The notes: a model not told the origin generated them from the letters alone. DNA of 64,000 nt from an uncultured Gammaproteobacteria bacterium (GCA_964424195.1 CAYRHT010000001.1:135260-199259); one strand, 5' to 3'; shown: positions 4,048 to 63,243, counted from the first letter of the stretch. Numbers and translations: made by a program.

Positions 4048-4052
4048 AAATT

Positions 4053-6257: not shown

Positions 6258-6258
6258 T

Positions 6259-6756: not shown

Positions 6757-7142
6757 AAGCAATAATAATCATGGGATCAGAATCTGATAAAGATTTTGTC
6801 CAAAAAATTACAACAAAATTAAGTGAATTAAAAATTGAGTTTGAGGAGCATGTAGCTTCTGCTCATAAAAATCCTAAAGAAGTATTAGAGATTATTGAGA
6901 AAAATAATGAGTCCGATGATAAATTATGTTATATTACAGTTGCCGGAAGAAGTAATGCTTTGTCAGGTTTCACAGCTGCTAATGCTAAACACCCTGTCAT
7001 TGCTTGCCCTCCTTTGAAGGATAAAATGGATTATATGGTAAATATCCATTCTACTCTCCAAATGCCCTCAAAAGTGCCTGTAATGACTGTAATTGACCCA
7101 GGAAATGCAGCTTTAGCAGTAAGTAGAATCTTAAACTTATAA
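6753..7142 (+). CDS. purE: N5-CAIR mutase / PurE family protein (short)
   Basis: IIIMGSESD, SAHKNP and AGRSNALSG align to the PurE motifs IVMGSKSD, SAHRTP and GGAAHLPG. Confidence 0.8.
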   Translation: MKAIIIMGSESDKDFVQKITTKLSELKIEFEEHVASAHKNPKEVLEIIEKNNESDDKLCYITVAGRSNALSGFTAANAKHPVIACPPLKDKMDYMVNIHSTLQMPSKVPVMTVIDPGNAALAVSRILNL

Positions 7143-7146
7143 AAAT

Positions 7147-8472: not shown

Positions 8473-8476
8473 TATT

Positions 8477-9955
8477 ATGTGTGGAGTGGTCGGAATATTT
8501 GGTAATCAAGAAACCAGAGTAAGTTTAGAGCTTTATGATTCTTTAATTGCTTTACAGCATCGAGGACAAGATTCAGCTGGGATTATAACTCTCAATGATG
8601 GTTTTCATTTACATAAGAAATTAGGATTAGTTCGTAATGTTTTTAATGAAGAAGTTCTTTCTCGTTTAAGAGGTAATATGGGAATTGGACATGTCCGTTA
8701 TTCAACAGTTGGTGATGGGACTGCAAATGATGCTCAACCATTTTTAGCTAGTTCTCCCTATGGAATAGCTATAGCTCATAATGGTAATGTAACTAATTTT
8801 GAAAAACTTAAGAAAGAATTAGCTGAAAAAGATTTACGACAAACTAATTCTGGTTGTGATGTAGAAATAATTTTGAATGTTTTTGCTAGTGCTTTAGCGA
8901 AACAAAAAGAGGGAGATTTTAAAGAGCAAGTTTTTAAAGCAGTAGCAGAAGTTCACCAAAGAGTTCAAGGGAGCTATTCAGTAGTAGTAATCATTGCTGG
9001 TAAAGGAATGGTAGCTTTTCGAGATCCTTTAGGAATTAAACCTCTGGTAATTGGTAAACGAGGAGAAGAATATATATTTGCTTCAGAGAATGTAATGTTT
9101 ACTACATTAGGATTTGAATATCAGGGAGATGTCCAAGCTGGTGAATGTATTTTTCTTGATCAAGAGAGTAAATTACATCGGAAGTTAATTACTAAAAAAA
9201 CTCATTGTCCTTGTATTTTTGAACATGTTTATTTCGCTCGACCAGATGCATTGATTGATAATGTTAGTGTTTACAAATCTCGTTTACGAATGGGTAATAA
9301 ATTATCAGAAAAGATTAAACCTTTGATGGATGAATTAAAAATAGATGTAGTAGTCCCAGTTCCTAGTACTTCTACTACCACAGCTTTAACTTTAGCCTAT
9401 GACTTAGGAGTTAAATACCGAGAAGGATTAATGAAAAATCATTTTATTGGTCGAACATTTATTATGGAGAGTCAAGAAAAAAGAAAAAAGTCAGTTCGTT
9501 ACAAACTATCTCCCGTAGAATTAGAAATTAAAGACAAGAATGTTTTATTATTAGATGATAGTATTGTTCGAGGAAATACTTCTAAAGAAATAGTGAGACT
9601 TCTGAAAGAATGTGGAGCTAAAAAAGTATATTTTGCTGTAGCTGCTCCACCAATTAAATTTCCTTGTGTCTATGGAATTGATATGCCAACTCGACAAGAA
9701 TTAATTGCTCATAATAAAGAGAGTATGGAAGAAATTAGAAAAGAGATTGGAGCTGACTTTTTAATATATCAAGAACTTGATGATTTAGTTGATTGTGTTC
9801 ATGAGGGTAATCCGGAAGTTAGAGAATATTGTACAGCTTGTTTCTCTGGAAAGTATCCAACTAATATTTCAGCAGAAGAGTTGTTAGAACTAGAAGAAGA
9901 GAGACTGGTAGTTCGGAAGAAACAAAAAGAACAACAAATGAAAATATTTAAATAA
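8477..9955 (+). CDS. purF: Amidophosphoribosyltransferase
   Basis: N-terminal MCGVVGIFG Ntn-amidotransferase start, followed by a PRTase domain. Confidence 0.92.
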   Translation: MCGVVGIFGNQETRVSLELYDSLIALQHRGQDSAGIITLNDGFHLHKKLGLVRNVFNEEVLSRLRGNMGIGHVRYSTVGDGTANDAQPFLASSPYGIAIAHNGNVTNFEKLKKELAEKDLRQTNSGCDVEIILNVFASALAKQKEGDFKEQVFKAVAEVHQRVQGSYSVVVIIAGKGMVAFRDPLGIKPLVIGKRGEEYIFASENVMFTTLGFEYQGDVQAGECIFLDQESKLHRKLITKKTHCPCIFEHVYFARPDALIDNVSVYKSRLRMGNKLSEKIKPLMDELKIDVVVPVPSTSTTTALTLAYDLGVKYREGLMKNHFIGRTFIMESQEKRKKSVRYKLSPVELEIKDKNVLLLDDSIVRGNTSKEIVRLLKECGAKKVYFAVAAPPIKFPCVYGIDMPTRQELIAHNKESMEEIRKEIGADFLIYQELDDLVDCVHEGNPEVREYCTACFSGKYPTNISAEELLELEEERLVVRKKQKEQQMKIFK

Positions 9956-9959
9956 AATT

Positions 9960-22428: not shown

Positions 22429-24204
22429 ATGAGACGAGAAAGTTCTTTAATTAAAGATTTTTCTAAAGAAAAAAATCAAGAAAATAGAGATAAAACAGCT
22501 CAAGATATTAGGTCTAAAAGAACTGAGTATTTTTCTAATAAAGAAGAAAGAAAAGAATGGCAGGGTGAAAAAGATAATTTGCAAGAAGACATGGAATCTA
22601 GTGACTTAGAAATTCAAGAAAAAGTTGAGTCATTAAATGACCTAAGGGATGATATAGAAAGATTATCTAGTAATTTACCTAAAAAGCTTTGGAATCATTT
22701 TAAAATAAAGAATATAAAGTCAAAATTAGCTATTGGTAAAAAATCTTATGAGGAATTAAAAACTTGGCACGATGGATTATTAGAACAAGATAATGTTTTA
22801 GAATCTAATTTATCAGAAGAAAATATTTCTGACGGAGACCAGGAAGCTCAGAAAATTCTAAATAATTTTTATAGAGAACAAGAAAATCAATGGGCTAATA
22901 GTGAATATAATAAAGAAGATATAAATAAACACTTTTCTGAAGAAAATTTAGCTTCTTTATCAATAGAAGACTATATTTTGCTTTTAAAAAGATTTCCTGG
23001 AAATATGGTTACTCATGTTACTCGACAAGGAATTAGAGATCATACTGGTCATATGTATCATACAGCTGGAAAGGGCGAATATTCAGATGGTTTTAAACAA
23101 ATATTAGAGTCTGGCAAGTTGTTTTCGATATTAAATGATAATTTAACAGAAAAAGAAAAAAGGAATTTGATTTCCGAATTTTTATTATTAGAAGAATGCG
23201 AAAATAGAGAAGAAGCATTGGAAAATTTAGAGGCGACCTTAGGTAGAGTAGGTGGACATTATAGCGACAGGACATCTGTTCATTTCGCTACAGAAGAAGT
23301 TGCTGATAAATTTTATGGAGGCGAGAAGGGAAATGAAATATTTTTTACTTATCCTTCTCTCTATATATCTTCTCAATATTCTTTTCAGGGGAATCTTGTG
23401 GAAGGGCAGGGTCATGAACATAATGATCAATGGGTCTGGATGAAGGAAGAAGAAAAAGGTATGAATATAAACGCAGGTATTGTTTTTATTCCCAAAGAAT
23501 CTCAGGTTGATAAAAGGACTGGTTCGGTATATGAATTAGACGAAGATAGTGATCCTATTATTAATCAAGAATATAAAGATCTTGTGAAAAACTTTATAGA
23601 TTCTGAAGATTTTTCTAAATTGTCTGATGAAATTATGGAAATTACTAATAATAGTGAAATAGATTATCTTATTCGCTTAGACGAAGCTACTTTGTCTGAG
23701 GAAGACAGAGAAAAACTAAATGTTCTAAATCCCTTTAGAAAAGAAATAGAAAATACTTTTAACATTAAAGATAGGAAATTACAGAACGTTCTATTTGGTT
23801 ATCAAAATCTGGATTCTTTTCAAGAATTTAGAAAAGAAAATATAGATAAATTAGACTCGCCTGATGAAAAAATAGAAAAGGCTTTAAATAAGAATGGTGT
23901 TTTATATAAAAGAGCAGAAGATGTTGTTGATTCTGAGAAATATTGGGAAGATTATTTTAAAAAATATCCTGGCAAGAAGCCATCAAAAATTGTTTATTAT
24001 AAAGCGAAAACTCCAACAATTGCATTAGAGAAGTGGAGAGAAGATAATTCCATTAAATCTGAACAAAACAATATTTATTTAGAATCTTCAGAAAATAGAA
24101 CAGATAGTACTTTCCCAGAAGTGAATGAAGGGAGAGATGAATTATATAATTTAGCGATAGAAGTTATTAATGACCATTTTGATAAAAAAGAAAAAGTGGC
24201 TTAA
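22429..24204 (+). CDS. Large acidic hypothetical protein
   Basis: 591 aa, E/D/K-rich with coiled-coil-like N-terminus. TATAAT -10 at about 22400. No assignable domain. Confidence 0.5.
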   Translation: MRRESSLIKDFSKEKNQENRDKTAQDIRSKRTEYFSNKEERKEWQGEKDNLQEDMESSDLEIQEKVESLNDLRDDIERLSSNLPKKLWNHFKIKNIKSKLAIGKKSYEELKTWHDGLLEQDNVLESNLSEENISDGDQEAQKILNNFYREQENQWANSEYNKEDINKHFSEENLASLSIEDYILLLKRFPGNMVTHVTRQGIRDHTGHMYHTAGKGEYSDGFKQILESGKLFSILNDNLTEKEKRNLISEFLLLEECENREEALENLEATLGRVGGHYSDRTSVHFATEEVADKFYGGEKGNEIFFTYPSLYISSQYSFQGNLVEGQGHEHNDQWVWMKEEEKGMNINAGIVFIPKESQVDKRTGSVYELDEDSDPIINQEYKDLVKNFIDSEDFSKLSDEIMEITNNSEIDYLIRLDEATLSEEDREKLNVLNPFRKEIENTFNIKDRKLQNVLFGYQNLDSFQEFRKENIDKLDSPDEKIEKALNKNGVLYKRAEDVVDSEKYWEDYFKKYPGKKPSKIVYYKAKTPTIALEKWREDNSIKSEQNNIYLESSENRTDSTFPEVNEGRDELYNLAIEVINDHFDKKEKVA

Positions 24205-29477: not shown

Positions 29478-30659
29478 ATGAAATTTGAAGGAAATATAAC
29501 ACCCATTACTAAAGATGAGATATCTTCTAGTGATAGTGAAAAAAATAAATTAGAAGATTCTAAAAAAAAGGATATTGATTCATTAACAATAAAAGAAGTA
29601 GAAAATTATGAAGTACCAGGAGCAGATGAAATACTTGAAATTATGTCCGAAGAGGTTTCTGCAGAAGAAAAAGAAAAATTGGAAAAAATAACCAATAATA
29701 TACCATTAGGAGTGAAGGATAATATTGTTAATACTTTTAAGGATCAAGTCAAATTATTTAAAAATTTAGGAACAGGTTTACAGGAAAAAATTAATTGGGA
29801 TAAAAAGAAAACAAAAGCTGTTGTATGTTTAGGAATATATGCTCTTATGAATGTTATGGGTAGTGTGCTTCATGCTGATGAATCTGATACAGATTCGGAT
29901 ACAGATTTAGATGGTGAATTAAATCTCTCTTTTTTGAAATCTACACTTTCTGGTGCTATTAATGAATTAAATACTTTGGACGCGACTCCAGAACAGGGAG
30001 ATTTATTTTTTAATGCTTCTATGGAGTTAGCAAAGGAAATGACAGAGATAGAGGAATTAGATGGTGAAAGAGTAAAATATAATTGGGCTATAAATAAGAT
30101 GTTAGAATGGTCCGAATATGCGCAGGAAAGCGGAATATCTCTGGAAGAATATAAAAATGGGTTAAGTGAAATTTCAGATAACTTTTTAGATTATATTAAT
30201 GGTTCAGATGAAATTGATTCTAATGATAATTTAGATGATTCTGTTGAAAATAATAATAGTATTTTAAATGAGATAGTTTTACCAGAAAAAGCAGCATTAG
30301 AATTTGACTCTCATTTTTCAGAAATTAATAAAATGAATATGCAAAAAGGTTATAATAGTACTGTAGAAGAAATACATGCTGCGGCAGAAAAATTTGAATG
30401 GTGGGGAGATAAATATGGAGACAGAGATGCTTTTTCAAAATTTGAAGAGCAGGTTAAAGATTATATTAATGGTTTAATAGCTAAAGTTGAAAAGATAGAA
30501 AGTAATGCTAAGAATCCAGATCATACATTAAAAACATATAGTAACCATGAATCCAGTAATATAGGGTTGAAGGTAGAGTTTGAATTAGATAAATTTTCAA
30601 AAGACACTGGACTTCGTAGTGATATGGAAGAAATGGATGATCAGTTCGAAAATTTTTAA
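29478..30659 (+). CDS. Acidic hypothetical protein
   Basis: 393 aa, D/E-rich, one central hydrophobic segment. No recognisable domain. Confidence 0.5.
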   Translation: MKFEGNITPITKDEISSSDSEKNKLEDSKKKDIDSLTIKEVENYEVPGADEILEIMSEEVSAEEKEKLEKITNNIPLGVKDNIVNTFKDQVKLFKNLGTGLQEKINWDKKKTKAVVCLGIYALMNVMGSVLHADESDTDSDTDLDGELNLSFLKSTLSGAINELNTLDATPEQGDLFFNASMELAKEMTEIEELDGERVKYNWAINKMLEWSEYAQESGISLEEYKNGLSEISDNFLDYINGSDEIDSNDNLDDSVENNNSILNEIVLPEKAALEFDSHFSEINKMNMQKGYNSTVEEIHAAAEKFEWWGDKYGDRDAFSKFEEQVKDYINGLIAKVEKIESNAKNPDHTLKTYSNHESSNIGLKVEFELDKFSKDTGLRSDMEEMDDQFENF

Positions 30660-32676: not shown

Positions 32677-32762
32677 GCCGAAGTGGCGGAACTGGTAGAC
32701 GCGCACGACTCAAAATCGTGTGGACTTTGTCCGTGAGAGTTCAAGTCTCTCCTTCGGCACCA
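32677..32762 (+). tRNA. tRNA-Leu (anticodon CAA), class II with long variable arm
   Basis: GCCGAAGTGGCGGAA...CTCAAAA anticodon loop, long extra arm, T-arm GTTCAAGTC and 3' CCA encoded. Confidence 0.85.
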
Positions 32763-32802
32763 TTGACAAAGAGATGAATATTTATTATCATCTCTATATC
32801 GT

Positions 32803-32879
32803 CGCGGGGTGGAGCAGTCTGGCAGCTCGTCAGGCCCATAACCTGAAGGTCGTAGGTTCAAATCCTACCCCCGCTACCA
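32803..32879 (+). tRNA. tRNA-Met (anticodon CAU), likely initiator type
   Basis: CGCGGGGTGGAGCAG start resembles bacterial tRNA-fMet. C1:U72 mismatch at the acceptor end. Anticodon loop cCCATAA. CCA encoded. Confidence 0.75.
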
Positions 32880-32896
32880 ATTTTCTTTAATATCTA

Positions 32897-32973
32897 GGCA
32901 GGGTAGCTCAGTTGGTTAGAGCGCAGGACTCATAAGCCTGAGGTCGCGAGTTCAATTCTCGCCCCTGCTACCA
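32897..32973 (+). tRNA. tRNA with CAU anticodon (elongator Met or lysidine-modified Ile2)
   Basis: GGCAGGGTAGCTCAGTTGGTTAGAGC...CTCATAA anticodon loop, T-arm GTTCAATTC, CCA encoded. Confidence 0.75.
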
Positions 32974-51899: not shown

Positions 51900-52979
51900 T
51901 TGAAGATTATGGAAAAAGATAAATTAACAACTAGATTAAATTTTAGAAAATTAGAGGATGCTCAAAAAATTCAACGTTTGTTAGCGGAAATTGATGAATT
52001 TAAGGGTCGATGGATCGCAGGAATGAAATTATCTCCGCAGATTTTGAATAAATTAAAAAGATCGGTAATTATTACTTCTACTGGGTCTAGTACTCGAATT
52101 GAGGGAGTAGAGCTTAGTGATGAAGAGATTGAAAAATTATTTAAAGGTTTAAAGATTAAAAAATTTAATACTAGAGATGAACAAGAAGTAGCTGGTTATA
52201 AAGAGCTTTTGGAAAACGTTTTTAATTCTTATTTAAATATAAAATTTAATGAGAGTTTAATTAAAAGTTTTCATAAAGAATTATTAAAATATTCTGAAAA
52301 AGATAAGTATCATTTAGGGAAGTATAAATTTGATAATAATCAAGTAGAAGCTCTTGATTTAAAGGGCAAGGTAATTGGCATTGTTTTTGATCCAAGCCCA
52401 CCACATTTAACCTCTAAAGAGATGAATGAGTTGATTGAATGGACTCAAACTGCTTTACAAAAGAATTTAATTCACCCTTTGCTAGTAATTGGAAATTTCA
52501 TTTTGGAATTTTTAGCAATTCATCCTTTTCAAGATGGTAATGGTCGAACTTCAAGAATTCTGACTAATTTTTTGATGCTTAAATTAGGATATGAATATAT
52601 GCCTTATGTTTCGCATGAAAAATTTATAGAGGATAATAAAACAGATTATTATTTAGCCCTTCGAAAAAGTCAGGGGAATTGGAAAAAACGAAGTAAAGAT
52701 ATTGCCCCGTGGATGATTTTCTTTTTAAATATTGTCTTAGAACAAGCTCAAATGGCAATTACTATTAGTGATAATGAGAAAATAGAATTTTTGTTATCAG
52801 AGAAGCAGTTGTTAGTTTGGGAATATTTTCAAGAGCATGAGTATTTAAGTCCAAAAGATATTAGAGATAATTTGAATATCAAAGAGTCAACTGTGTTGCA
52901 GATATTAAATAAATTATTAAATATGAAGAAAATTGAACGTTTAGGAATGGGTAGAGGTGTGAGATATAAGAAAACTTAA
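51900..52979 (+). CDS. Fic family protein (class II, with N-terminal inhibitory motif)
   Basis: Fic motif HPFQDGNGRTSRIL. N-terminal STRIEG matches the (S/T)xxxE(G/N) inhibitory helix. C-terminal winged-helix-like domain. Confidence 0.85.
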   Translation: MKIMEKDKLTTRLNFRKLEDAQKIQRLLAEIDEFKGRWIAGMKLSPQILNKLKRSVIITSTGSSTRIEGVELSDEEIEKLFKGLKIKKFNTRDEQEVAGYKELLENVFNSYLNIKFNESLIKSFHKELLKYSEKDKYHLGKYKFDNNQVEALDLKGKVIGIVFDPSPPHLTSKEMNELIEWTQTALQKNLIHPLLVIGNFILEFLAIHPFQDGNGRTSRILTNFLMLKLGYEYMPYVSHEKFIEDNKTDYYLALRKSQGNWKKRSKDIAPWMIFFLNIVLEQAQMAITISDNEKIEFLLSEKQLLVWEYFQEHEYLSPKDIRDNLNIKESTVLQILNKLLNMKKIERLGMGRGVRYKKT

Positions 52980-53098: not shown

Positions 53099-54208
53099 AT
53101 GCCAGATATTAAAATAAAAAGTGATCTTGGTAATTTTTCTGATATTAATGATGAAATTATTATCAAAGATGATGATGATTTTCAAGTTTTTTCCCAAGGA
53201 AATTTATCAGATTTAGATATTTCTAAATTAGAAGAAAAGAAAAAGTTTTCAGAATCTAAAGAAGTCCTAGATACAGGTAAGGAAGAAATAAATTTAGCTC
53301 CACCAGCTCCAGTTGTTTGGGATAAAAAATCTAGCTTTTATTTCGATATTCAAGATGAAGATGATATTGCTCAGGAGGTCAAGAAGATAGCAAAGATGGA
53401 GAAAGAATCTCCAGAATCTACAAAGAGCAAGGAATTAAAAAAATACAGTTTAACTAAGATATTAAAAAAACTTTTAGAGAATTATAATTTAAATTTACTA
53501 CCAGATTTAGAAAAAAGATTGAGTAATATTGTTCTGTCTTTTTTAAAACATACTAGAAATAGAGTAGATGCTTTGAATTTGTTTAAGGCTCCGATTAATC
53601 AATCTGGTTTAGCCATCGATAGTGAGTTAGCAGGTAAATTAATTGATTTATTAGATAATATTAGGACTAAAGTTGATGAAGTCGGAGGAAGTATTATTGA
53701 GGATCAAAAGGATGTAAAAAATAATAATCAAGTTCAAAATAACCAACGGGTAGAAAACTTAGCTAATATTGATCCGCGACAAAAGATTAAAGTTGAAGAA
53801 AAAGGAATAGAAATACCAATGATTCAAAGGAATTCTTCAGTTGGAGACAAGCCTATAGTTACAGGTATTAAAAAGAAGGAAAGAGTAGTTGGTCCAATGG
53901 ATGAATTTTCAGAAATTACTTTAATAAATTTTAGACGTTTATCCAACGACCCTACTGAAGCAGCTCAGAAAATTATGGATAGAATTAGATCTTTAGAAAA
54001 AGAATCATATATCAAGAGAGCGACAGCTATTCAGAACTGGAGAAAGAGCGAGGTTTATAAACTTTATTTAGATTTAGGTAGAGAAAGTATGGAAAAAAAT
54101 CTATCAATAGATAAAATTATTGAACAAAAGATTTTAAATAAAGAAAAAGTTTTGAAGATGAAAGAGTTTAGTGCTGTTACAGATTTAAATAAAAAATTAA
54201 GGTTTTAA
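53099..54208 (+). CDS. Hypothetical protein (first gene of the T4SS-like cluster)
   Basis: 369 aa, acidic, no TM helix and no recognised domain. Confidence 0.45.
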   Translation: MPDIKIKSDLGNFSDINDEIIIKDDDDFQVFSQGNLSDLDISKLEEKKKFSESKEVLDTGKEEINLAPPAPVVWDKKSSFYFDIQDEDDIAQEVKKIAKMEKESPESTKSKELKKYSLTKILKKLLENYNLNLLPDLEKRLSNIVLSFLKHTRNRVDALNLFKAPINQSGLAIDSELAGKLIDLLDNIRTKVDEVGGSIIEDQKDVKNNNQVQNNQRVENLANIDPRQKIKVEEKGIEIPMIQRNSSVGDKPIVTGIKKKERVVGPMDEFSEITLINFRRLSNDPTEAAQKIMDRIRSLEKESYIKRATAIQNWRKSEVYKLYLDLGRESMEKNLSIDKIIEQKILNKEKVLKMKEFSAVTDLNKKLRF

Positions 54209-54210
54209 AT

Positions 54211-54669
54211 ATGCGTTATATTGTTCCTCAATTTATTGATGTCGAAGATAAAATATTTGGTCCAGTTACGGTTCGACAGTTTTTAATTTTAACAGTTGGC
54301 GGGCTTTTTATATTCATCTCCTTTAAATTATCTGATTTTTCCTTATTTGTTTTTTTAACTGTTATCATCGCTGGTTTAGCAGTGGTAATTGCCTTTGTTA
54401 AGGTGAATGGTAAAAAATTTCATGTCTTTTTCCTAGATATGTTAAATTTTCTTTTTAAAACTCCTAAATTATCTATTTGGCAAAAAAAAGAAAACACTAT
54501 TAAAACCATAGAGATAAAAGAAAAGGAAATAATAGATGATTATTACTTTAATCCCAAAGATTTACCACGAACAAAGTTGTCAGAAATATCTTTAGTAGTT
54601 GATACTGGTGGAGCATATATTGGTGAAGATAATAATGACTCATTAATAGGACAAAAATATGAAAAATAA
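54211..54669 (+). CDS. PrgI-like / VirB3-like small membrane protein
   Basis: 152 aa. N-terminal MRYIVPQFIDVEDKIFGPVTVRQFL followed by two TM helices, immediately upstream of a VirB4-like ATPase. Confidence 0.55.
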   Translation: MRYIVPQFIDVEDKIFGPVTVRQFLILTVGGLFIFISFKLSDFSLFVFLTVIIAGLAVVIAFVKVNGKKFHVFFLDMLNFLFKTPKLSIWQKKENTIKTIEIKEKEIIDDYYFNPKDLPRTKLSEISLVVDTGGAYIGEDNNDSLIGQKYEK

Positions 54670-55330
54670 AAAGAGAAAAACAAATAGTGCTGCTCAAGAA
54701 ATTTTAGAAATTTCTAGTATTCAGGATAATATGGTGATTTTGAAAAATGGTACTGTCCGAGCAGTGTTAATGGTTTCATCTATTAATTTTGCTTTAAAAA
54801 ATCAAGACGAGCAAGAAGGTATTATTGGAGCTTTTTATTCTTTCTTAAATTCGATTGATTATCCTTTACAAATAGTTATTCAATCAAGAGCCTTAGACAT
54901 TGATCAGTATTTAGATAAATTAGATAAATTAGGAAAACAGCAAACTAATGAATTACTAAGAATGCAAACTACTGATTATACCCAGTTTATTAGAGAGCTT
55001 CTACAATTACAATCAATTATGAGTAAGAAGTTTTTTGTAGTCGTCCCTTATTCAGTCGTAGAAGTTAAAAAGAAAAGTTTTTTCACTCAAGCTTCTGATC
55101 TATTTACAGCTCAGAAAGTATTGAAAATTAGGAAGAAAGAATATGAAGAATACAAGGATCAATTATTTAGAAGAGTTGGTCATGTTCGTTCAGGTTTAGA
55201 AGGTATGGGATTGCAATCAGCACCATTGGATACTTCAAGTCTAATAGAACTTTATTATAATTCATATAACCCAGAAACTTCCAAAAGAGAGAAGTTAAAG
55301 GATATTAAAAAAGTTAGAATTGATGAGTAA
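54659..55330 (+). CDS. Hypothetical T4SS-associated protein
   Basis: 223 aa, translationally coupled (11-nt overlap) between the PrgI-like and VirB4-like genes. Confidence 0.4.
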   Translation: MKNKKRKTNSAAQEILEISSIQDNMVILKNGTVRAVLMVSSINFALKNQDEQEGIIGAFYSFLNSIDYPLQIVIQSRALDIDQYLDKLDKLGKQQTNELLRMQTTDYTQFIRELLQLQSIMSKKFFVVVPYSVVEVKKKSFFTQASDLFTAQKVLKIRKKEYEEYKDQLFRRVGHVRSGLEGMGLQSAPLDTSSLIELYYNSYNPETSKREKLKDIKKVRIDE

Positions 55331-55365
55331 GATTATTAATTTATTTGTAAAATAATAATTCTAAG

Positions 55366-57234
55366 ATGTTTAAACAAAAACAAATTCAAGAAACAAATAA
55401 TGCTTCTGAACAGGATTCACAAGTTTCAACACAGAATAATGTTCAAGATAAGCGTTTTTTAGAAGCTGAAAAAGTATATCGAAGAGGTAAGACTTCTGTT
55501 AAAGATTTAATTGCTCCAGCTGCTTTTAAAGTAGAAAGTAGTTTTCTTCGGATTGGTGATAAATATGTTAGTACTATTTATGTTATAACTTATCCTCGAT
55601 ATATTAGTATTGGATGGTTTGCTCCAGTTATTAATTATTCTATTCCTTTGGATGTTGCTATGTATTACTATCCTTTACCTTCAGAAAAGATTTTAAAAAA
55701 GTTAAGAAACAAAGTTGGTTCTTTGGAAGCTCAATTACATGGTGATGCTGAAAAAGGTGCTCCTCGTGATCCCCAAAGACAAACTGCCTTACAAGATATT
55801 GAAGAATTAAGAGATAATTTGACTCAAGGTACAGAGAAATTTTTTCAATTTGCTTTGTATATAACTATTTATGCTAATGATCCAGAAGAATTAGAAAAAA
55901 GAGTTGAAAATGTTGAAAATATTTTTGGTTCAAAATTAATTTTTACTAAGAGAGCATTATTTACTTCTAAAGAAGGATTTAATTCAACTTTACCACTAGG
56001 TAATGACGAATTATACATTGCCAACAATATGAATTCATCCCCGGCTTCTGCCTCTTTCCCTTTTATCTCTTCCGAATTAACTAGTGATGATGGTATTTTG
56101 TATGGAATTAATCGACATAATAATTCTCTGATACTTTTTGATAGATTTTCTTTACAAAATGCTAATGCTGTTGTTTTTGCTACTTCTGGTGCTGGTAAAT
56201 CCTACGCTATTAAGTTAGAAGTAATTCGAAGTTTAATGATGGGTACAGAGGTTATTATAATTGATCCGGAAAAAGAATATCAACATTTATCAGAAGCAGT
56301 AGGAGGAACATATATTAATCTTTCTCTAAATTCTAATTCTAAAGTTAATCCTTTCGATTTACCTAAGGGTTTAAGTAAAGAGATGAAGGCGGCTGATGTT
56401 TTAAGAAGTGCTGTAATTACTTTAAAAGGATTAATTCGTTTAATGGTCGGTAAATTATCTCATTTGGAAGATTCTTTAGTTGATCGAGCGCTTTTAGAAA
56501 CTTATGCTAAAAAAGATATTACAGCAGATAGTGATTTAGATGATGTAGAAGCTCCTTTGATGGCAGATTTTGAAGAAGTTTTAAATGGAATGGAAGGTGG
56601 AGGAGACTTAGCTCAAAGAATTAAAAAATATACTGAAGGAACTTTTGCAGGACTTTTTAATAGTCCTACTAATGTTGATGTTACTAATCAATTAATTACT
56701 TTTAGTGTTCGAGATTTAGAAGATGAATTAAGACCAATCGCTATTTATACCATTATTACCTATATTTGGAATTTAGTTAGATCTCAAGTTAAGAAGAGAA
56801 TCTTAATTATTGATGAGGCTTGGTGGTTAATGCAACATGAAGATAGTGCTAAGTTTATCTATGCTTTAGTAAAAAGATGTCGAAAATACTATTTAGGAGT
56901 AACTACTATTACTCAGGATGTTAATGACTTTTTAAGATCACCATATGGTCAAGCTATTGTTACTAATTCTTCTTTACAATTATTGTTAAAACAGTCTCCA
57001 GCAGCTATTGATCTAATTCAAAAGACTTTTATGCTGACTGATGAAGAAAAATATTTACTATTACAAGGTAAAGTTGGACAAGGAATTTTCTTTGCTGGAA
57101 ACAAGCATGTCGCAATTCAAATTGAAGCATCATATACTGAAGATCAATTAATTACCTCTGATCCAAAACAACTTTTAGAAATTGAAGAAGCTAAGAGAGA
57201 GTTTAAAGACAAACAAGTAAAAGAAAATTCTTAA
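55366..57234 (+). CDS. VirB4/TrsE/PrgJ-like conjugation ATPase
   Basis: Walker A ATSGAGKSY, Walker B ILIIDEAWWLM. N-terminal IAPAAFKVESSFLRIGDKYVSTIYVITYP typical of Gram-positive VirB4 homologues. Confidence 0.8.
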   Translation: MFKQKQIQETNNASEQDSQVSTQNNVQDKRFLEAEKVYRRGKTSVKDLIAPAAFKVESSFLRIGDKYVSTIYVITYPRYISIGWFAPVINYSIPLDVAMYYYPLPSEKILKKLRNKVGSLEAQLHGDAEKGAPRDPQRQTALQDIEELRDNLTQGTEKFFQFALYITIYANDPEELEKRVENVENIFGSKLIFTKRALFTSKEGFNSTLPLGNDELYIANNMNSSPASASFPFISSELTSDDGILYGINRHNNSLILFDRFSLQNANAVVFATSGAGKSYAIKLEVIRSLMMGTEVIIIDPEKEYQHLSEAVGGTYINLSLNSNSKVNPFDLPKGLSKEMKAADVLRSAVITLKGLIRLMVGKLSHLEDSLVDRALLETYAKKDITADSDLDDVEAPLMADFEEVLNGMEGGGDLAQRIKKYTEGTFAGLFNSPTNVDVTNQLITFSVRDLEDELRPIAIYTIITYIWNLVRSQVKKRILIIDEAWWLMQHEDSAKFIYALVKRCRKYYLGVTTITQDVNDFLRSPYGQAIVTNSSLQLLLKQSPAAIDLIQKTFMLTDEEKYLLLQGKVGQGIFFAGNKHVAIQIEASYTEDQLITSDPKQLLEIEEAKREFKDKQVKENS

Positions 57235-57253
57235 ATTAATAATATATAAATAT

Positions 57254-57835
57254 ATGGATAAGAAACAAATTAAAATATTAATTATTACCTTTATAGCAGT
57301 ACTTTTAATAGTCTTTGTAGTGTTTTTACTAGTTAATATTGGAGATAAAGTAAATAATTCTCAATCAGAAATAAATTCAGTTGATAATACTTTAAAAGAG
57401 GAGAAAAAAGATTCAGAGCTTATTAAAGAAGTAATTGCTGAAAAGAGTGCAGAAGAATTATCAGAAATGAAGATCAAAAGTGTTGCTAAAAATTTTACAG
57501 AAAGATATGGTACTTGGTCATCAGATAATCAAGCTAATAATTTTAAATCAACTAAAGTATATACCACTTCAAGAATGGAGAATATTATTAAGGACTTTGT
57601 AGAAAATGATGAAAGATTAGCTAATGATTATCCAGATTATTATGGAATCACTACTAAAGCTTTGAATGTTAAGATTATAGATTCCAATGAATCTAGTGCT
57701 AATCTATTAGTTTCTGTTCAACAAACAGAGACTTTAGGAGATGTTTCAGGAGAAGATACTAGTTATAGTAGTTTAAGTTTGGAATTGATAGAATATAATG
57801 GAGATTGGTTTGTTAATTATGCAGAGTGGGAATAG
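57254..57835 (+). CDS. Membrane-anchored protein, possibly VirB8-like (NTF2-like fold)
   Basis: N-terminal TM helix followed by a soluble domain of about 150 aa. Assignment is tentative. Confidence 0.35.
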   Translation: MDKKQIKILIITFIAVLLIVFVVFLLVNIGDKVNNSQSEINSVDNTLKEEKKDSELIKEVIAEKSAEELSEMKIKSVAKNFTERYGTWSSDNQANNFKSTKVYTTSRMENIIKDFVENDERLANDYPDYYGITTKALNVKIIDSNESSANLLVSVQQTETLGDVSGEDTSYSSLSLELIEYNGDWFVNYAEWE

Positions 57836-57850
57836 ATTAATTTAAAAAAT

Positions 57851-58897
57851 ATGCCAGAAGATCAGAAAGAAATAGAATTAAAGCCAGGAGAAACTAAAGA
57901 AATTAAAATTGATATTCCTTTAGCAGTTCAAGGTGATGATAAGCCAGAAGTAAAACCTAAAGAAGATTCAGAAGTCAGAAACCAACAACCAGAAAATCAA
58001 GAAGAAGATCAAAATTTAAAGAATGATGAAGAAAATAATCAAGAAGAAAGACCAGGACTAAGTGATGTTGGTCAGATGAATCAGAGATCAGAGAGAAGAC
58101 ATTATCCTCAAACTGAAAAAATGGATAATCTAGATAAGCCAAAGCAAAATGATAAAAAACGAGATTCAAAAGAAAATGGAGATGAAAGAAGTTTAAGGGA
58201 TAGGTGGAGAGATGCTCAAGCCAAGAAACAAAATAAAGATAGAGAAAATGTAAGAAAGAATGCTAAAGATAAATCTAATTCAAATTTAGGAGATAAAATG
58301 ACAGAGTTAGCAGGTAAAGCAGGAGATAAGCTTTTACCGAAATCTAGGATTCCAGAGAGAGGAAAGGGAATGCCAAGAGATAAATCAGATGTTATTGATA
58401 GTGATTATGGTGGTCCAAGTAAAAAAGAAGATTTAATGTCTAGTTGGAATAAGTTAAGGAATTCAGTTAGAAATAAAAAAGATCAGAATGATATTAAGGA
58501 AAAGAGAAGTGGAACTGGTCAAATTATTAATAAAGGAAGTAGATTGGCTAGTTATGAATTTTATAGATTATGTTGGCTAAATTTAATAGATAGTTTTGGT
58601 TTAACATATCTTGGATTATTGTTCTTATTTGTAGCTAAATATGTCGCTGGTAGTAGTAAGGTTATAAAATTTGTTAGTATTAAAGATACTTCAGCTCGTT
58701 TAGATGTAATTCATAATAAAGAGAAAACAGACATACTATCAATGATTACCTTTGTTGCCCTGACTATGGCCATTGTAGCATTAATTATCTTAGCCATATT
58801 CTTGATAATACTAATATTAGTAGCCTTAGGAGTAATTAAAATTGAAGGTCTTAGTAGATTAGAGGCTATTATAGAGATTATTAAAAAAATATTTTAA
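57851..58897 (+). CDS. Hypothetical membrane protein with charged low-complexity N-region and C-terminal TM helices (possibly VirB6-like)
   Basis: K/E/D/N-rich first 230 aa. Three hydrophobic helices at the C-terminus. Confidence 0.4.
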   Translation: MPEDQKEIELKPGETKEIKIDIPLAVQGDDKPEVKPKEDSEVRNQQPENQEEDQNLKNDEENNQEERPGLSDVGQMNQRSERRHYPQTEKMDNLDKPKQNDKKRDSKENGDERSLRDRWRDAQAKKQNKDRENVRKNAKDKSNSNLGDKMTELAGKAGDKLLPKSRIPERGKGMPRDKSDVIDSDYGGPSKKEDLMSSWNKLRNSVRNKKDQNDIKEKRSGTGQIINKGSRLASYEFYRLCWLNLIDSFGLTYLGLLFLFVAKYVAGSSKVIKFVSIKDTSARLDVIHNKEKTDILSMITFVALTMAIVALIILAIFLIILILVALGVIKIEGLSRLEAIIEIIKKIF

Positions 58898-58909
58898 TAA
58901 ATTAAATAT

Positions 58910-60184
58910 ATGTCAAAATTTAGGAAAATAGCATTAATCATTTTATTTATTCTAGTAATTACAATAGTTAGTATTTTATTGTATAGAATATTCTTTAAAA
59001 CAGCAGATCCTGTTATTGTTACGGATCCTAGTGGTATTGAAGGCGGAGGTTTGCCAGCTATTAATGAAGGAGATGTTTCAGTGAGGGGATTAGAAGGAGA
59101 TATTGTTACGGATCCAATAGATGCGGAAGATATTTTTGTAGAACAAGAAGGAGTTGATAATATTGCTCAAGGAGGATTTACAAACTCTAAAGAATTAGTT
59201 GCTAAAAATATTAAATCCCCAGATTTTAGTAAGATTAATAATGGTTTAGTCTATTATGATCGAGAGAATCAAGGATTTTATCGAGTTAATGATGATGGTA
59301 GTGTTTTTAAAATGTCAGAGAATAAATTCTATTCAGTAGTTGATGTTGTTTGGTCTCCAACTAAAAACCAAGCTTTAATAGAATATCCAGAAGATGATAA
59401 TGTGGTTTATAATAAAGTTTTGTATGATTTTGATAAAGATAGAGCAATAACTAGCTTCCAGAAAGAGATGAAAGATTTTAACTTTTCTAATAATGGAGAA
59501 AAGATATCAGCTAAATGGATAGGTGATTATGAAGATCATAATTATATAGTTAGTTCTGATATTCATGGTAATAATTTTAAATTTGTAGAACCAATTGGTA
59601 GTAAGAGAAAAGATGTTCAAACAGTTTGGAGTCCAGATTCTGAAATCCTAGCTACTTATCGAGAATCTGTTGATGCTAATCGACAGGAAGTGTATTTTAT
59701 AAATGAAAATAATAAGAATCTTAGTTCTTTAATAGTTGATGGTCGAGGTTTTGAAGTTGCTTGGAACCCCAAGGGGGACAAGATTTTATATAGTGTTTTT
59801 AAAGCTCAAACTGATTACAACCCCACTTTATGGATAGCTAGTGGACAAGGAAATGGTCTGGGAGGCGGTAAAAGATATGTTGGTTTAAATACTTGGGTTG
59901 ATAAATGTGATTTTAGTCAAAATAATGGTGACATAGTATATTGTGCAGTACCAGATTATTTACCTAAAGGCAGTGGTTGGTATCCAGAACTAGCTAAAGA
60001 TGTCCCTTATCATATATATCAAGTAGATATTAGTACTGGTCGAAAACAAAAAGTTGCTGACCCAGTTGTTAATGGTTCAAGAGTTAATATTGATCAAATA
60101 TATTTAGGGGAGAATGATCAAACACTATATTATACTAATGGAGCAGATGGTCATTTATATAGTATAAATTTAGCAACAGAATAA
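58910..60184 (+). CDS. Membrane-anchored TolB-like (PD40/WD40-like) beta-propeller protein
   Basis: N-terminal TM helix. Repeated VWSP...K-type PD40 segments (VVWSPTKNQ, VWSPDSEILA, VAWNPKGDKILYS). Confidence 0.6.
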   Translation: MSKFRKIALIILFILVITIVSILLYRIFFKTADPVIVTDPSGIEGGGLPAINEGDVSVRGLEGDIVTDPIDAEDIFVEQEGVDNIAQGGFTNSKELVAKNIKSPDFSKINNGLVYYDRENQGFYRVNDDGSVFKMSENKFYSVVDVVWSPTKNQALIEYPEDDNVVYNKVLYDFDKDRAITSFQKEMKDFNFSNNGEKISAKWIGDYEDHNYIVSSDIHGNNFKFVEPIGSKRKDVQTVWSPDSEILATYRESVDANRQEVYFINENNKNLSSLIVDGRGFEVAWNPKGDKILYSVFKAQTDYNPTLWIASGQGNGLGGGKRYVGLNTWVDKCDFSQNNGDIVYCAVPDYLPKGSGWYPELAKDVPYHIYQVDISTGRKQKVADPVVNGSRVNIDQIYLGENDQTLYYTNGADGHLYSINLATE

Positions 60185-60188
60185 TATT

Positions 60189-60851
60189 ATGCCAGAACAA
60201 AAAGATAAATTATTTTCTTCATTAATGATTATATTAATCTTAGTTGTTTTAGCTTTTTTAGTATATAATTTTGTTTGGGATATAAATATTTTTAAAACTA
60301 AAAATAATGAAACTGTAATCCAGAGCAAAACAGAAGGATATTTACTTTCTTCTTTACCAAACGACCCAGTTAAAGGAGAAGGATTATCAACTATTGCTAT
60401 TTATTTATTTACTGATTATGAAGCTAATCAAATGAATGAAATTATGAAGATAGTTAATGATTTAATAAAGAAATATCCTAATGATGTTCATTTAGTTTGG
60501 AAGGATTTACCAGTTTCTAAACATTATTTCTCTCGAGGAGCAGCTTTAGCAGCTCGTTGCTCTCTAGATGATCAGAAGTATTGGGAATATAATGAAAAAT
60601 TATTAAATAGAAAAAAGTCTTTATCTTTAGAATTGTATCAAGAAATAGCTAGTGACTTAGGAATGGATTCAGTAAGCTTCTTAGCTTGTTATAAGTCAGG
60701 TAAATATCTATCTGATATAGATAATAATATTAGGGAAGCTTATGTTTTAGATGTTGATGATGTTCCTAGTATTTTTCTAAATCAAGAGCAATTGAAGGGG
60801 GAGATTAGTTTTGAAAAATTAGATAAGATGGTTAGTAATTTAGTAAAATAA
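60189..60851 (+). CDS. DsbA/BdbD-like thioredoxin-fold protein lacking the CxxC active site, membrane-anchored
   Basis: N-terminal TM helix. DsbA-like pattern (VWKDLPVS...GAALAARCSLDDQKYWEYNEKLL...GTP-like DVPSIFLN), but the CxxC position reads FTDYEANQ. Confidence 0.5.
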   Translation: MPEQKDKLFSSLMIILILVVLAFLVYNFVWDINIFKTKNNETVIQSKTEGYLLSSLPNDPVKGEGLSTIAIYLFTDYEANQMNEIMKIVNDLIKKYPNDVHLVWKDLPVSKHYFSRGAALAARCSLDDQKYWEYNEKLLNRKKSLSLELYQEIASDLGMDSVSFLACYKSGKYLSDIDNNIREAYVLDVDDVPSIFLNQEQLKGEISFEKLDKMVSNLVK

Positions 60852-60928
60852 TATTCAACTTGACAAGTATAATAATATTAGATAATATTATACTTAGTAA
60901 GTGGTAAATTATTAAATATGTAAAGTAT

Positions 60929-62125
60929 ATGCTTTATTCAAGAGAAATTTTTGAACAAGCTAAAAAATTATTATTAAAAGATGAATGTATTATCTTAACA
61001 GGAGCTAGGCAAACTGGTAAGACTTCTATTTTAATAATGTTGAAAAATTTTTTAGAAATAAAAAAAAATCAACCTTGTTTCTATTTTAATTTAGAAAATC
61101 AGGATTATTTGAAATTATTAAATAAACATCCTTATAATATTTTTGAATTAATTCCTAATAGTAAAGTTAAACAAACTATTATTATTGATGAAATTCAATA
61201 TTTAGATGATCCAACTAATTTTTTAAAATTACTTTATGATGAAAAAAGGGATCAAGTAAAAATTATTGCTTCGGGTTCTTCGTCTTTTTACATTGATAAG
61301 AAATTCAAAGATAGTTTGGTAGGACGAAAAGTATTATTAGAAGTGTATCCTCTTAATTTTACAGAATTTTTAGTTTTTAATGATGAAGATGATTTAATAA
61401 AGCAGAAAAGTAAAACATTGTCAGTTTATTATAAAAACAAATTAAAGAAATTATGGGATAAATATTTAATTTATGGTGGTTATCCTAAGGTTGTTTTAGA
61501 GGGTAAAAATAATGCTCAGATAGTAATTTTGCAAGATATTGTTTCTTCTTATATTAAAAAAGATATTCGGGATGCTGGTATTAAGAATACAGATAAATAT
61601 TTTGCTCTTTTAAAAATATTAGCTAGTCAAACGGGTGAATTAGTAAATTCTCAAGAGTTAGCTAATACATTAAATATGGCTCACAAGACAGTAGAGGAAT
61701 ATTTATATGTTATGAAAAAGTCTTATCAAGTTGCTTTTATTCGACCTTTTTACAGAAATGCTAGAAAAGAGTTAAGTAAGATGCCTAAGGTATATTTTTA
61801 TGATTTAGGTTTTAGAAATTTATTACTTAATGATTTTGATTTTTTAGATAAAAGACAAGATAAGGGAGCTTATTTAGAAAATGTTATTTTTAAAGAATTT
61901 TTAAGACAGTTTGGAAATATTAATTTGATTAATTTTTGGCGCACTCAAGACAAGAAAGAAGTTGATTTTGTAATTGATAGTAAAGAAGCTTTTGAAGTTA
62001 AGTTTGTTGCATCTCAGATTAAGAAAAAGAAGTATGAAGCATTTAAAAATTTCTATCCTAATATTAAATTAAGTTTTTTAGAATATTCTAAAGTTTTAGA
62101 AAAGTTTTACAAATGGAAATTATAA
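60929..62125 (+). CDS. AAA family ATPase (AAA_14 + DUF4143 type)
   Basis: Walker A GARQTGKTS, Walker B IIIDEIQY. C-terminal DUF4143-like region. Confidence 0.7.
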   Translation: MLYSREIFEQAKKLLLKDECIILTGARQTGKTSILIMLKNFLEIKKNQPCFYFNLENQDYLKLLNKHPYNIFELIPNSKVKQTIIIDEIQYLDDPTNFLKLLYDEKRDQVKIIASGSSSFYIDKKFKDSLVGRKVLLEVYPLNFTEFLVFNDEDDLIKQKSKTLSVYYKNKLKKLWDKYLIYGGYPKVVLEGKNNAQIVILQDIVSSYIKKDIRDAGIKNTDKYFALLKILASQTGELVNSQELANTLNMAHKTVEEYLYVMKKSYQVAFIRPFYRNARKELSKMPKVYFYDLGFRNLLLNDFDFLDKRQDKGAYLENVIFKEFLRQFGNINLINFWRTQDKKEVDFVIDSKEAFEVKFVASQIKKKKYEAFKNFYPNIKLSFLEYSKVLEKFYKWKL

Positions 62126-62142
62126 ATTTTAACCATAATAAG

Positions 62143-63243
62143 ATGAATAAAAAAATAATTAAAGTCATATTAGTATCCTTAGTTCTAGTCTTTATTTTTA
62201 ATATTAACTTTGCATTAGCTGAAAATCCTTTTGGAGAACCTTGTTCAACTAAATCATTCACTGATCTTAAAGGTGCTATTTGTTATGAACCAGAGATTGC
62301 TATTCCTGGATTACCAAGTTCTTTTGAAGTTGAATCTAATACTTTAGGTTTATATATTAAAATCTGGTATGAATATTTACTTTATGTAGCTGGAGTCCTA
62401 GCTGTAATTGTAGTTATGGTTGGTGGATTTCAATGGATTACTGCTGGAGGAAATCAGAGTAAGATTGGTGAAGCTAAAGAGAGGATTATTAGTGCAATTA
62501 TTGGTTTATTTTTAGCTCTAGGTTCTTATTTATTACTTTATACTATTAATCCTGAATTAGTTAAAATACATGATTTAAATATGCCGGATATAGAGCCAAT
62601 CAATATCTATTGCGAAGATGTCAGTAAATTAAGAAAGGTTGGGGATACAGGAGAATACACAATTGATGGTTCAGAAACTGAATGTGGTGAATATTATGAA
62701 TATGTGGTGGATGAATCTATTTTTAAGTGTCGAGGAAGGAGTTGTTTTAAAGAAGGTGCTAGTTATGTTTGTAAAATTGATAAATGTGTAAATGAGTCAG
62801 TTTCTTATAATCATCCCTGTGATGATAATAAAGATTCTGATTGTATACCACCTAATGTTTGTAAATCATATGCAGCTAGACAGGACGGAGGAACTGGTTT
62901 ATGTGGTCTTAGATCTGGTCAAGATGGTTATTGCTCTGAGGATTTAGATTGTGTAGAAGATTATTCATGTATAAGTTCAAGATGTAAACATGATGTGTCT
63001 GGATTGTGCGAAGGTTTGAGTCCGGGAGATACTTGTGTTAATAGTGAAGAAAATGGTTATTGTAATAATCAATTAGCTTGTTTTGCATGTGCTAGTGTTG
63101 GTGATAATTGTGGTTCACCACATGGTCCACAATATGTTTGTCCCAATCCACAGGGTATTTGTGGAAGTAATAATGGAGGAGATTATTGTGATAGTTGGTC
63201 TAATTTATGTACAGAAAATGATAATCCTGGTTTACTTCATTAA
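62143..63243 (+). CDS. TrbC/VirB2-like pilin fused to a cysteine-rich extracellular domain (about 190 aa)
   Basis: Signal peptide MNKKIIKVILVSLVLVFIFNINFALA. Pilin-like core with two TM helices (LAVIVVMVGGFQWITAGGNQSKIGEAKERIISAIIGLFLALGSYLLLYTINPEL). C-terminal domain with more than 30 Cys in CxxxC/CxC-rich arrangements. The ORF track starts at 62113; the internal Met at 62143 was chosen. Confidence 0.55.
   Translation: MNKKIIKVILVSLVLVFIFNINFALAENPFGEPCSTKSFTDLKGAICYEPEIAIPGLPSSFEVESNTLGLYIKIWYEYLLYVAGVLAVIVVMVGGFQWITAGGNQSKIGEAKERIISAIIGLFLALGSYLLLYTINPELVKIHDLNMPDIEPINIYCEDVSKLRKVGDTGEYTIDGSETECGEYYEYVVDESIFKCRGRSCFKEGASYVCKIDKCVNESVSYNHPCDDNKDSDCIPPNVCKSYAARQDGGTGLCGLRSGQDGYCSEDLDCVEDYSCISSRCKHDVSGLCEGLSPGDTCVNSEENGYCNNQLACFACASVGDNCGSPHGPQYVCPNPQGICGSNNGGDYCDSWSNLCTENDNPGLLH

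Follow-up and report, generated by a model that had tools for sequence, protein, structure and literature searches.

The subject of this analysis is a type IV secretion system (T4SS) gene cluster at positions 53099-63243 of a 64,000-nucleotide stretch of DNA (GCA_964424195.1 CAYRHT010000001.1:135260-199259), which is recorded as coming from an uncultured Gammaproteobacteria bacterium and is called the window below. The cluster probably belongs to the Patescibacteria and has probably been turned to a non-conjugative use. It comprises ten open reading frames (ORFs), all on the + strand and separated by -13 to +77 bp, and the ten tightly spaced, co-directional genes of the initial annotation were all recovered at these positions. 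The genes are as follows (TM, transmembrane).

53099..54208, + strand: O1, a cytoplasmic protein of 369 aa with no TM segment and no Cys; a core gene of the cluster
54211..54669, + strand: PrgI/VirB3-like membrane protein of 152 aa (Pfam PrgI PF12666), with a hydrophobic hairpin at residues 18-69
54659..55330, + strand: TrsD-like protein of 223 aa, the N-terminal part of VirB4 as a separate gene
55366..57234, + strand: VirB4-family ATPase of 622 aa, of the MPF_FATA (Gram-positive) type according to profiles and Walker motifs
57254..57835, + strand: O5, a VirB8-like bitopic protein of 193 aa with an N-terminal TM helix, a disordered linker and an extracytoplasmic NTF2-like domain (residues 66-193)
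57851..58897, + strand: O6, a membrane protein of 348 aa with a charged, low-complexity N-terminal part (~225 residues) and 2-3 C-terminal TM segments
58910..60184, + strand: O7, a membrane-anchored PD40/TolB-like beta-propeller of 424 aa with an N-terminal TM segment and invariant Cys 333 and 345
60189..60851, + strand: O8, a membrane-anchored DsbA-like thioredoxin-fold protein of 220 aa that has lost the CXXC active site
60929..62125, + strand: O9, an AAA_14 + DUF4143 ATPase of 398 aa (PADLOC PDC-S01), not a T4SS part
62113..63243, + strand: O10, a VirB2-like T4SS pilin (T4SS_pilin PF18895) with a Cys-rich C-terminal tail

The 622-aa protein matched the NCBIfam model conju_CD1110 with 363.6 bits against a cutoff of 325 (E 2e-108) and P-loop_TraG with an E value of 1.2e-30. 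Its Walker A motif (ATSGAGKS) was located at residue 272 and its Walker B motif (ILIIDEAW) at residue 479, and PrgJ of the Enterococcus faecalis plasmid pCF10 matches it at ~1e-44. It is an MPF_FATA-type VirB4 with intact NTP-binding motifs, as had been predicted, and the lack of profile support that the initial annotation named as the outcome speaking against it did not occur. The PrgI/VirB3-like and TrsD-like genes adjoin virB4. The former had been recognized before, and its product indeed scores above the gathering threshold of PF12666 (33.4 bits vs 27, E 6.5e-8). The 223-aa gene had been left unnamed and proved to be a TrsD-like, N-terminal piece of VirB4: it covers positions 95-233 of the NCBIfam model VirB4_plasma (E 2.7e-11), matches TrsD/TraD (E 1.1e-6) and is listed as PF26593 TraC-like in the record of the Joint Genome Institute (JGI). 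The PrgI-like, TrsD-like and VirB4 proteins are collinear with the Mbov_0397-family model, the fused VirB3-VirB4 of the T4SS on integrative and conjugative elements (ICEs) of Mycoplasma (positions 27-122, 95-233 and 273-893, respectively). However, they are encoded here by three genes that do not lie on an ICE, and all scores with the Mycoplasma ICE families are far below the cutoffs (271 bits vs 590).

No significant profile match was obtained for O1, O5, O6 or O7 as single sequences. O5 had been described as a bitopic protein with a VirB8-like layout, and this layout can now be given as a VirB8-like fold, since its extracytoplasmic NTF2-like domain is closest to VirB8-family structures and the gene lies in a T4SS locus. 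A homologue search with the single O5 sequence returned only 10 close matches and was rerun with a profile; the O5 family profile gave nothing significant against PDB and Pfam, and an hhalign comparison with PrgD was negative. O1 consists of two conserved helical domains that were modelled with confidence. It showed no family or fold match, its family profile gave nothing significant against PDB and Pfam, and it did not align with PrgF in hhalign. Almost all relatives nevertheless have the gene linked to that of PrgI, often as two copies, and O1 is an orphan core component of the T4SS cluster of this lineage. O6, with TM segments at residues 243-263 and 292-337, had no family match in profile searches. 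Its slot evolves fast: the relatives with the extended gene block described below hold a similarly laid-out protein at this position, and the only conservation in their alignment is one Pro between the TM segments. O6 may have a VirB6-like role, being the sole candidate for that component in the cluster. VirB6 does not strictly define such systems, and according to Quinonero-Coronel 2025 (PMC12102498) it is scarce or absent in some Patescibacteria classes.

The locus was compared with the 80 best genomic VirB4 matches (one genome per species, 68-91% identity), using tblastn, blastp and clustering of all ORFs. The records mostly name Patescibacteria lineages (Komeilibacteria, Falkowbacteria, Kerfeldbacteria, Parcubacteria or "Patescibacteria group"). 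Many others give just "bacterium", "uncultured bacterium" or "uncultured Gammaproteobacteria" as the automated titles of third-party metagenome-assembled genomes. We take the Gammaproteobacteria titles among the relatives to be mislabelled. The version of the cluster found here is that of the Komeili-, Falkow- and Kerfeldbacteria, which together with their fellow lineages we take to be the GTDB class ABY1. The core O1-PrgI-TrsD-VirB4-O5 is syntenic, its members being present in 76, 78, 80, 80 and 68-72 of the 80 loci, respectively. About 20 loci have, after this core, an extended block in which genes for a variable membrane protein (2-3 TM segments), the pilin (one or two copies), the propeller and the Dsb-like protein stand in slightly varying order. 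Over 150 pairs drawn from 30 genomes, mean identity was 80% for VirB4, 66% for TrsD, 61% for RadA, 57% for RecG, 56% for PrgI, 41% for O5 and 40% for O1. VirB4 is thus more conserved than RadA and RecG, and together with the synteny this points to vertical inheritance under strong selection and argues against a mobile element. In the nearest relatives (L007-L010), synteny extends to a flanking methyltransferase gene. The relatives also carry, directly after the cluster, genes for ComF (double zinc ribbon and phosphoribosyltransferase), RadA or RecG (for example, L013:12697-13458, L008:16849-18186 and, on the - strand, L008:18222-20285, with equivalents in most of L006-L085). This link has been lost in the genome of the window, where genes for an AI-2E-family transporter and cysteinyl-tRNA synthetase (CysRS) are found instead.

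The pilin O10 is the only pilin encoded in the window and the 10 kb beyond it, and its gene lies 4.9 kb downstream of virB4. Its score with PF18895 was 36.2 bits (gathering score 26.6; E 6.4e-9), and its signal peptide and its hairpin of two TM segments (residues 82-147) agree with the pilin-like protein with two TM helices proposed before. The true start of the gene is probably 62143 (MNKK...) and not 62113. A weak match was found to the Mbov_0395 pilin-like family of Mycoplasma ICEs (E 0.0017), and when the pilin family was compared with PrgF by hhalign, the match was limited to 25 columns in a TM segment. Of the 26 Cys residues in the protein, 24 lie in a tail of ~226 aa, which accounts for the Cys-rich pilin fusion noted earlier. 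Since the signal peptide and hairpin correspond to a VirB2-type topology, both ends of the pilin should lie outside the cell and the tail should be extracytoplasmic. The tail is nearly an orphan: a search of 1.84 billion representative proteins gave four non-self relatives (E<=1e-3), and no enzyme domain could be recognized in it.

A long C-terminal extension, unrelated from one protein to another, is present in all 25 pilins of the related loci, 24 of which match PF18895. Three of the extensions are SLT domains (E 6e-21), one is a Peptidase_M15_4 domain (E 5.7e-20) and one an Amidase_2 domain (E 5.7e-16); the rest are Cys-rich. Hydrolase-tailed pilins are encoded at L009:11006-12235, L028:16450-17796, L050:16286-17530, L067:16041-17405, L078:16302-17663 and L008:15410-16822, where the assignment of domains to loci was read from the alignment and the SLT domain of L008 was recognized by eye only (motif QESGGDPRAF). 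L009, among the nearest relatives, carries the Amidase_2 tail (also by eye) in the same gene slot as the window pilin. Tails are swapped between close relatives.

The two proteins encoded between O6 and the inserted O9 gene are extracytoplasmic in their predicted topology. Assignment of O7 as a TolB-like propeller is supported at the level of its family: among 20 members, 6 matched PD40 (best E 1.3e-6) and 13 a THOC3 propeller model, and hhalign of the family profile with Escherichia coli TolB gave 92% probability (E 6e-7) over 139 propeller columns. These matches uphold the earlier call. The comparison of the family with PDB and Pfam profiles gave only weak propeller matches. The gene is present in 20 of the 80 loci and always adjoins the pilin gene, the Dsb-like gene or both. 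O8 matched Thioredoxin_4 (E 6e-13) and DSBA (E 9.5e-8), both above the cutoffs, but FTDYEANQ stands in place of the F-x-D-F-x-C-x-x-C of its relatives, so that the CXXC motif reads E-A-N-Q. A Cys pair (124/167) and the cis-Pro (Pro193) are invariant in the family. CxxC is kept in 20 of 26 members and lost in the window, L008, L009, L010, L075 and L084. Judged by its sequence, O8 is a member of the fold family and not an active oxidoreductase, as the term inactive DsbA-like in the initial annotation implied. That the gene has been kept although catalysis was lost suggests that O8 acts in binding or as a scaffold. The accessory parts had been called unusual. The parts themselves are real; however, they are no oddity of this genome, because the propeller, the Dsb-like protein and the tailed pilin form a conserved block that is found again in about 20 of the 80 loci and are therefore typical of the lineage.

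O9 had been counted among the components of the cluster, and this part of the earlier description does not stand. Over its full length it matches PDC-S01, a candidate phage-defence family of PADLOC (E 2.8e-93). Homologues were found in only six of the 80 loci, and their positions all differ (for example, L063 and L083 have one after RadA and L049 has one before O1). No O9 separates the Dsb-like gene from the pilin gene in L008 and L009, where the two adjoin. O9 is therefore best explained as an insertion, and the varying positions suggest repeated insertion of such genes near this T4SS locus. The 2-kb block holding O9 has the lowest GC content of the window (0.248). A role as a second T4SS ATPase of the VirB11 or VirD4 kind was considered and rejected in view of the full-length PDC-S01 match, the unconserved position and the lack of VirB11- or VirD4-like matches. 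Directly upstream of the cluster lies a gene for a Fic protein (51900-52979, + strand; PADLOC SoFic, E 9.8e-43). In the nearest relatives the methyltransferase gene abuts O1 and there is no Fic gene, which suggests that the one in the window was inserted at the cluster edge. Given its SoFic membership and its absence at this position in near relatives, the Fic protein was likewise rejected as a T4SS effector or system part.

Housekeeping genes flank the cluster on either side (purine synthesis, ParAB, GyrA, RuvB, CysRS, ATP synthase). Upstream of it, the window encodes the Fic protein, the methyltransferase, two radical-SAM enzymes, serine hydroxymethyltransferase, queuosine genes, RuvB, GyrA, ParAB, three tRNAs, ClpB, RNase J and an entire purine pathway. 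The 10 kb past the window end were read from the JGI metagenome contig Ga0233431_1000003 (952,420 bp), which encodes identical proteins. They hold genes for the AI-2E-family transporter, a TP_methylase-family methyltransferase, CysRS, CvpA, TatD, a Gp49/HTH pair, RmuC and ATP synthase. The pair, of the toxin-antitoxin type, with a Gp49-like and a helix-turn-helix protein, lies 5.9-6.5 kb past the window end (L001:15904-16549) and precedes RmuC. From 53 kb upstream to 10 kb downstream of the cluster, Pfam detected no relaxase, coupling protein (T4CP/VirD4) or integrase domain among the called genes. The absence of these functions from the window, already noted, thus extends 10 kb beyond its end, where the search of the flank that had been proposed found neither VirD4 nor a relaxase. 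In phmmer searches, PcfC, PcfG, PrgH and PrgK of pCF10 had no match in the window or in the 80 related loci with their 10-kb flanks. A conjugative MPF_FATA element is characterized by a relaxase, a T4CP and an oriT together with the mating-pair formation genes, and relaxase and T4CP are absent from the window, the adjoining 10 kb and the 10-kb flanks of the 80 relatives. No flanking tRNA or repeat boundaries were found; the nearest tRNAs lie ~20 kb upstream (32677-32973) and no others were seen. The GC content of the cluster (0.25-0.30) is similar to that of the rest of the window (0.25-0.33).

T4SS loci of this kind have been described in Patescibacteria. Wang 2023 (Cell; PMC10633639) reported an unusual, Gram-positive-like T4SS with a pilin array and no relaxase or coupling protein (SEML1_0006-0019) in the Saccharibacterium Southlakia epibionticum, and transposon sequencing (Tn-seq) in that study showed both T4SS and pilin array to be essential for epibiotic growth. 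According to Quinonero-Coronel 2025 (Microb Genom; PMC12102498), VirB4 occurs in 2,417 of 3,035 Patescibacteria genomes as a clade within MPF_FATA, together with TrsD, PrgI/VirB3, VirB6 and VirB2-like pilins, with no relaxase and rarely a T4CP nearby. The same source finds VirB8 homologues almost confined to ABY1, reports ComF, RadA and RecG next to the T4SS cluster in that class, and proposes that DNA or other macromolecules are imported. The description of the Patescibacteria T4SS is taken up again in a 2025 FEMS review, and a 2026 preprint (bioRxiv 10.64898/2026.06.21.733656) reports tubular structures, possibly T4SS pili, at the parasite-host interface.

The cluster studied here is a further member of this published system and fits its description feature by feature. 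It is chromosomal and has a VirB4 of MPF_FATA ancestry, a separate TrsD, PrgI/VirB3, a PF18895 pilin near virB4, a VirB8-like protein as in ABY1 and no relaxase or T4CP nearby. It differs from the Patescibacteria clade in having one pilin gene instead of an array of 2-11 and in the lack of a detectable VirB6 homologue or separate VirB1-type hydrolase. Additional features are O1, the TolB-like propeller, the DsbA-like pseudo-enzyme and the long Cys-rich pilin tail. Furthermore, the cluster does not lie beside dnaA, nor, unlike that of its relatives, beside radA, recG or comF. Term searches in the text of PMC12102498 found no mention of such pilin fusions or of propeller or thioredoxin genes, and neither O1 nor the propeller/Dsb-like block nor the tail-swapping pilins were found in the text of Wang 2023 or Quinonero-Coronel 2025. 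With the pCF10 Prg/Pcf system of E. faecalis, the MPF_FATA prototype, it shares the order PrgI - VirB4 (PrgJ) - ... - VirB8-like (PrgL). However, counterparts of PrgH (VirB6), PrgK (hydrolase), PcfC (VirD4), PcfG (relaxase) and the PrgB adhesin are missing here, VirB4 is split into two genes, and a VirB2-like pilin is present that Gram-positive systems do not have.

Taken together, the flanks, GC content, synteny, VirB4 conservation and published component set agree with the proposal of the initial annotation that this is a chromosomal, relaxase-less apparatus of the kind found in CPR (candidate phyla radiation) bacteria and not a mobile element. The comparison with Patescibacteria loci that it called for bore this out, with the core syntenic across the 80 genomes compared and the published components matched. 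We consider it probable that the cluster is a vertically inherited, relaxase-less Patescibacteria T4SS, derived from MPF_FATA and turned to non-conjugative use, and we hold each step of the following mechanism with less confidence. The TrsD-like and virB4 gene products, for which homology was established, would together make VirB4, which would dock at the membrane through PrgI/VirB3 as VirB3-VirB4 biology suggests, and O1 would be a partner of this ATPase in the cytoplasm. The VirB8-like protein, whose fold was recognized, and perhaps O6 in a putative role would build the membrane platform. By analogy with Agrobacterium VirB4 and VirB2, ATP hydrolysis by VirB4 would extract the VirB2-like pilin and polymerize it into a pilus or stub. 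The pilin tail, placed on the cell or pilus surface by its predicted topology, would be a host-binding module here and a wall-cutting enzyme in relatives. The propeller and the inactive DsbA-like protein, anchored outside the cell, probably handle or scaffold the pilin, to judge from gene neighbourhood. Uptake of host macromolecules (DNA, RNA or others) and protein export are possible directions of transport.

Several points weigh against this interpretation. Pilus formation, substrate and direction are all proposals for this lineage, drawn by analogy. Neither the cluster nor the rest of the window encodes a VirB6-like polytopic protein detectable with profiles or PrgH, and no separate VirB1-type hydrolase is encoded in the cluster, though relatives fuse one to the pilin. 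O8, being inactive, cannot itself oxidize the 26 Cys residues of the pilin. Promoter and terminator scans of this AT-rich DNA performed no better than on shuffled sequence, and because they were uninformative, the reading as a single operon follows from gene spacing. The negative result for relaxase and VirD4 covers ~74 kb of a 952-kb genome, so that a distant copy is possible, and PMC12102498 places T4CP homologues far from virB4 in many Patescibacteria genomes.

The last point bears on the suggestion that the cluster is a degraded or active ICE with its relaxase, coupling protein and integrase beyond the examined sequence. The VirB4, PrgI and TrsD families do stem from Gram-positive conjugative elements, and mobile DNA often carries genes of the defence type, of which the cluster has two (PDC-S01 within it and SoFic on its upstream edge). 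However, these two genes are absent at their positions in relatives and are therefore later insertions. Neither transfer or integration genes nor tRNA or repeat boundaries were found from -53 kb to +10 kb, the GC content matches the surroundings, and synteny reaches the flanking methyltransferase in the nearest relatives. The greater conservation of VirB4 over RadA and RecG is also the opposite of what a mobile element would lead one to expect, and we regard an ICE as very improbable. A DNA-uptake machine like ComB of Helicobacter or the archaeal Ced and Ted systems, feeding recombination or nucleotide salvage, seems unlikely, though less so. ComF, RadA or RecG directly follow the cluster in relatives, the weak CedB match points the same way, and the lack of a nearby relaxase and T4CP fits import over export. 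Ced and Ted, with a proposed inward direction of transport, share the use of a VirB4-family ATPase with no relaxase. However, the window has lost its link with RadA, RecG and ComF. The CedB match is weak (E 4e-14; 52.1 bits vs a cutoff of 700) and the CedD match marginal, no CedA, A1 or A2 was matched and no ComB-specific part was found, and the membrane proteins and pilin are different from those of Ced and Ted. The full de novo purine pathway of this genome weakens the argument for nucleotide scavenging. In S. epibionticum, comEC is dispensable and the T4SS essential (PMC12857230), which separates the T4SS from classical competence but is silent on DNA import.

The pilin tails are central to the two remaining alternatives. 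In one of them, the system is a protein-export or contact weapon, in which hydrolases and adhesins, secreted or displayed on a filament, would breach and hold the host envelope and the tails would be the effectors delivered. SLT (three members), Peptidase_M15_4 and Amidase_2 domains after the pilin domain in relatives, and Cys-rich tails elsewhere including the window, are in line with this, as is protein export as one of the options offered by Wang 2023 (PMC10633639). Swapping of tails between close relatives and the near-orphan tail of the window are what would be expected at a host interface. On the other hand, the window tail contains no recognizable enzyme domain, the fused hydrolases could serve the housekeeping role of VirB1 by cutting the cell's own wall for assembly, a VirB2 polymer with tails of 200-500 aa is undocumented, and the steric fit of such tails in a pilus is an assumption. 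We judge this use to be rather improbable. The other, somewhat more plausible though still doubtful, is that the pilin is a modular carrier with a swappable C-terminal cargo, displaying host-binding or wall-cutting modules on the filament, and that the propeller, the DsbA-like protein and O1 are dedicated assembly factors. The conjugative-type pilus of this monoderm-like bacterium would then be "armed", and its tips, which evolve fast, would determine the host range.

Few machines have been shown to be essential for epibiotic life in Patescibacteria, and the T4SS is one of them. The locus adds nothing new on the T4SS core. The comparison of 80 loci provides experimental handles in O1, the VirB8-like subunit, the block of pilin, propeller and Dsb-like genes, and the swapped, outward-facing tails. 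If displayed on a pilus, these tails would be candidate determinants of host recognition and host-wall breaching.

Apart from the cluster, a complete-looking de novo purine pathway is encoded at 842-17578 (+ strand; purL/Q/S-type formylglycinamide ribonucleotide amidotransferase, purM, purC, purE, purB, purF, purD, purN, purH and guaA), with purA and the gene for IMP dehydrogenase just upstream. CPR bacteria are usually described as lacking nucleotide synthesis, and the pathway stands out in a CPR-type genome of ~0.95 Mb. Between purH and guaA, two genes (13472-15775, + strand) interrupt the operon and may be an inserted defence or regulatory pair. The first encodes 350 aa with weak HATPase_c and DUF4325 matches in the JGI record and weak N-terminal AbiEi and SoFic matches; the second encodes 410 aa with no matches. 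Two large, acidic proteins with few Cys residues (591 and 393 aa; 22429-24204 and 29478-30659, + strand) had no Pfam or PADLOC match, and the smaller one has one predicted TM segment.

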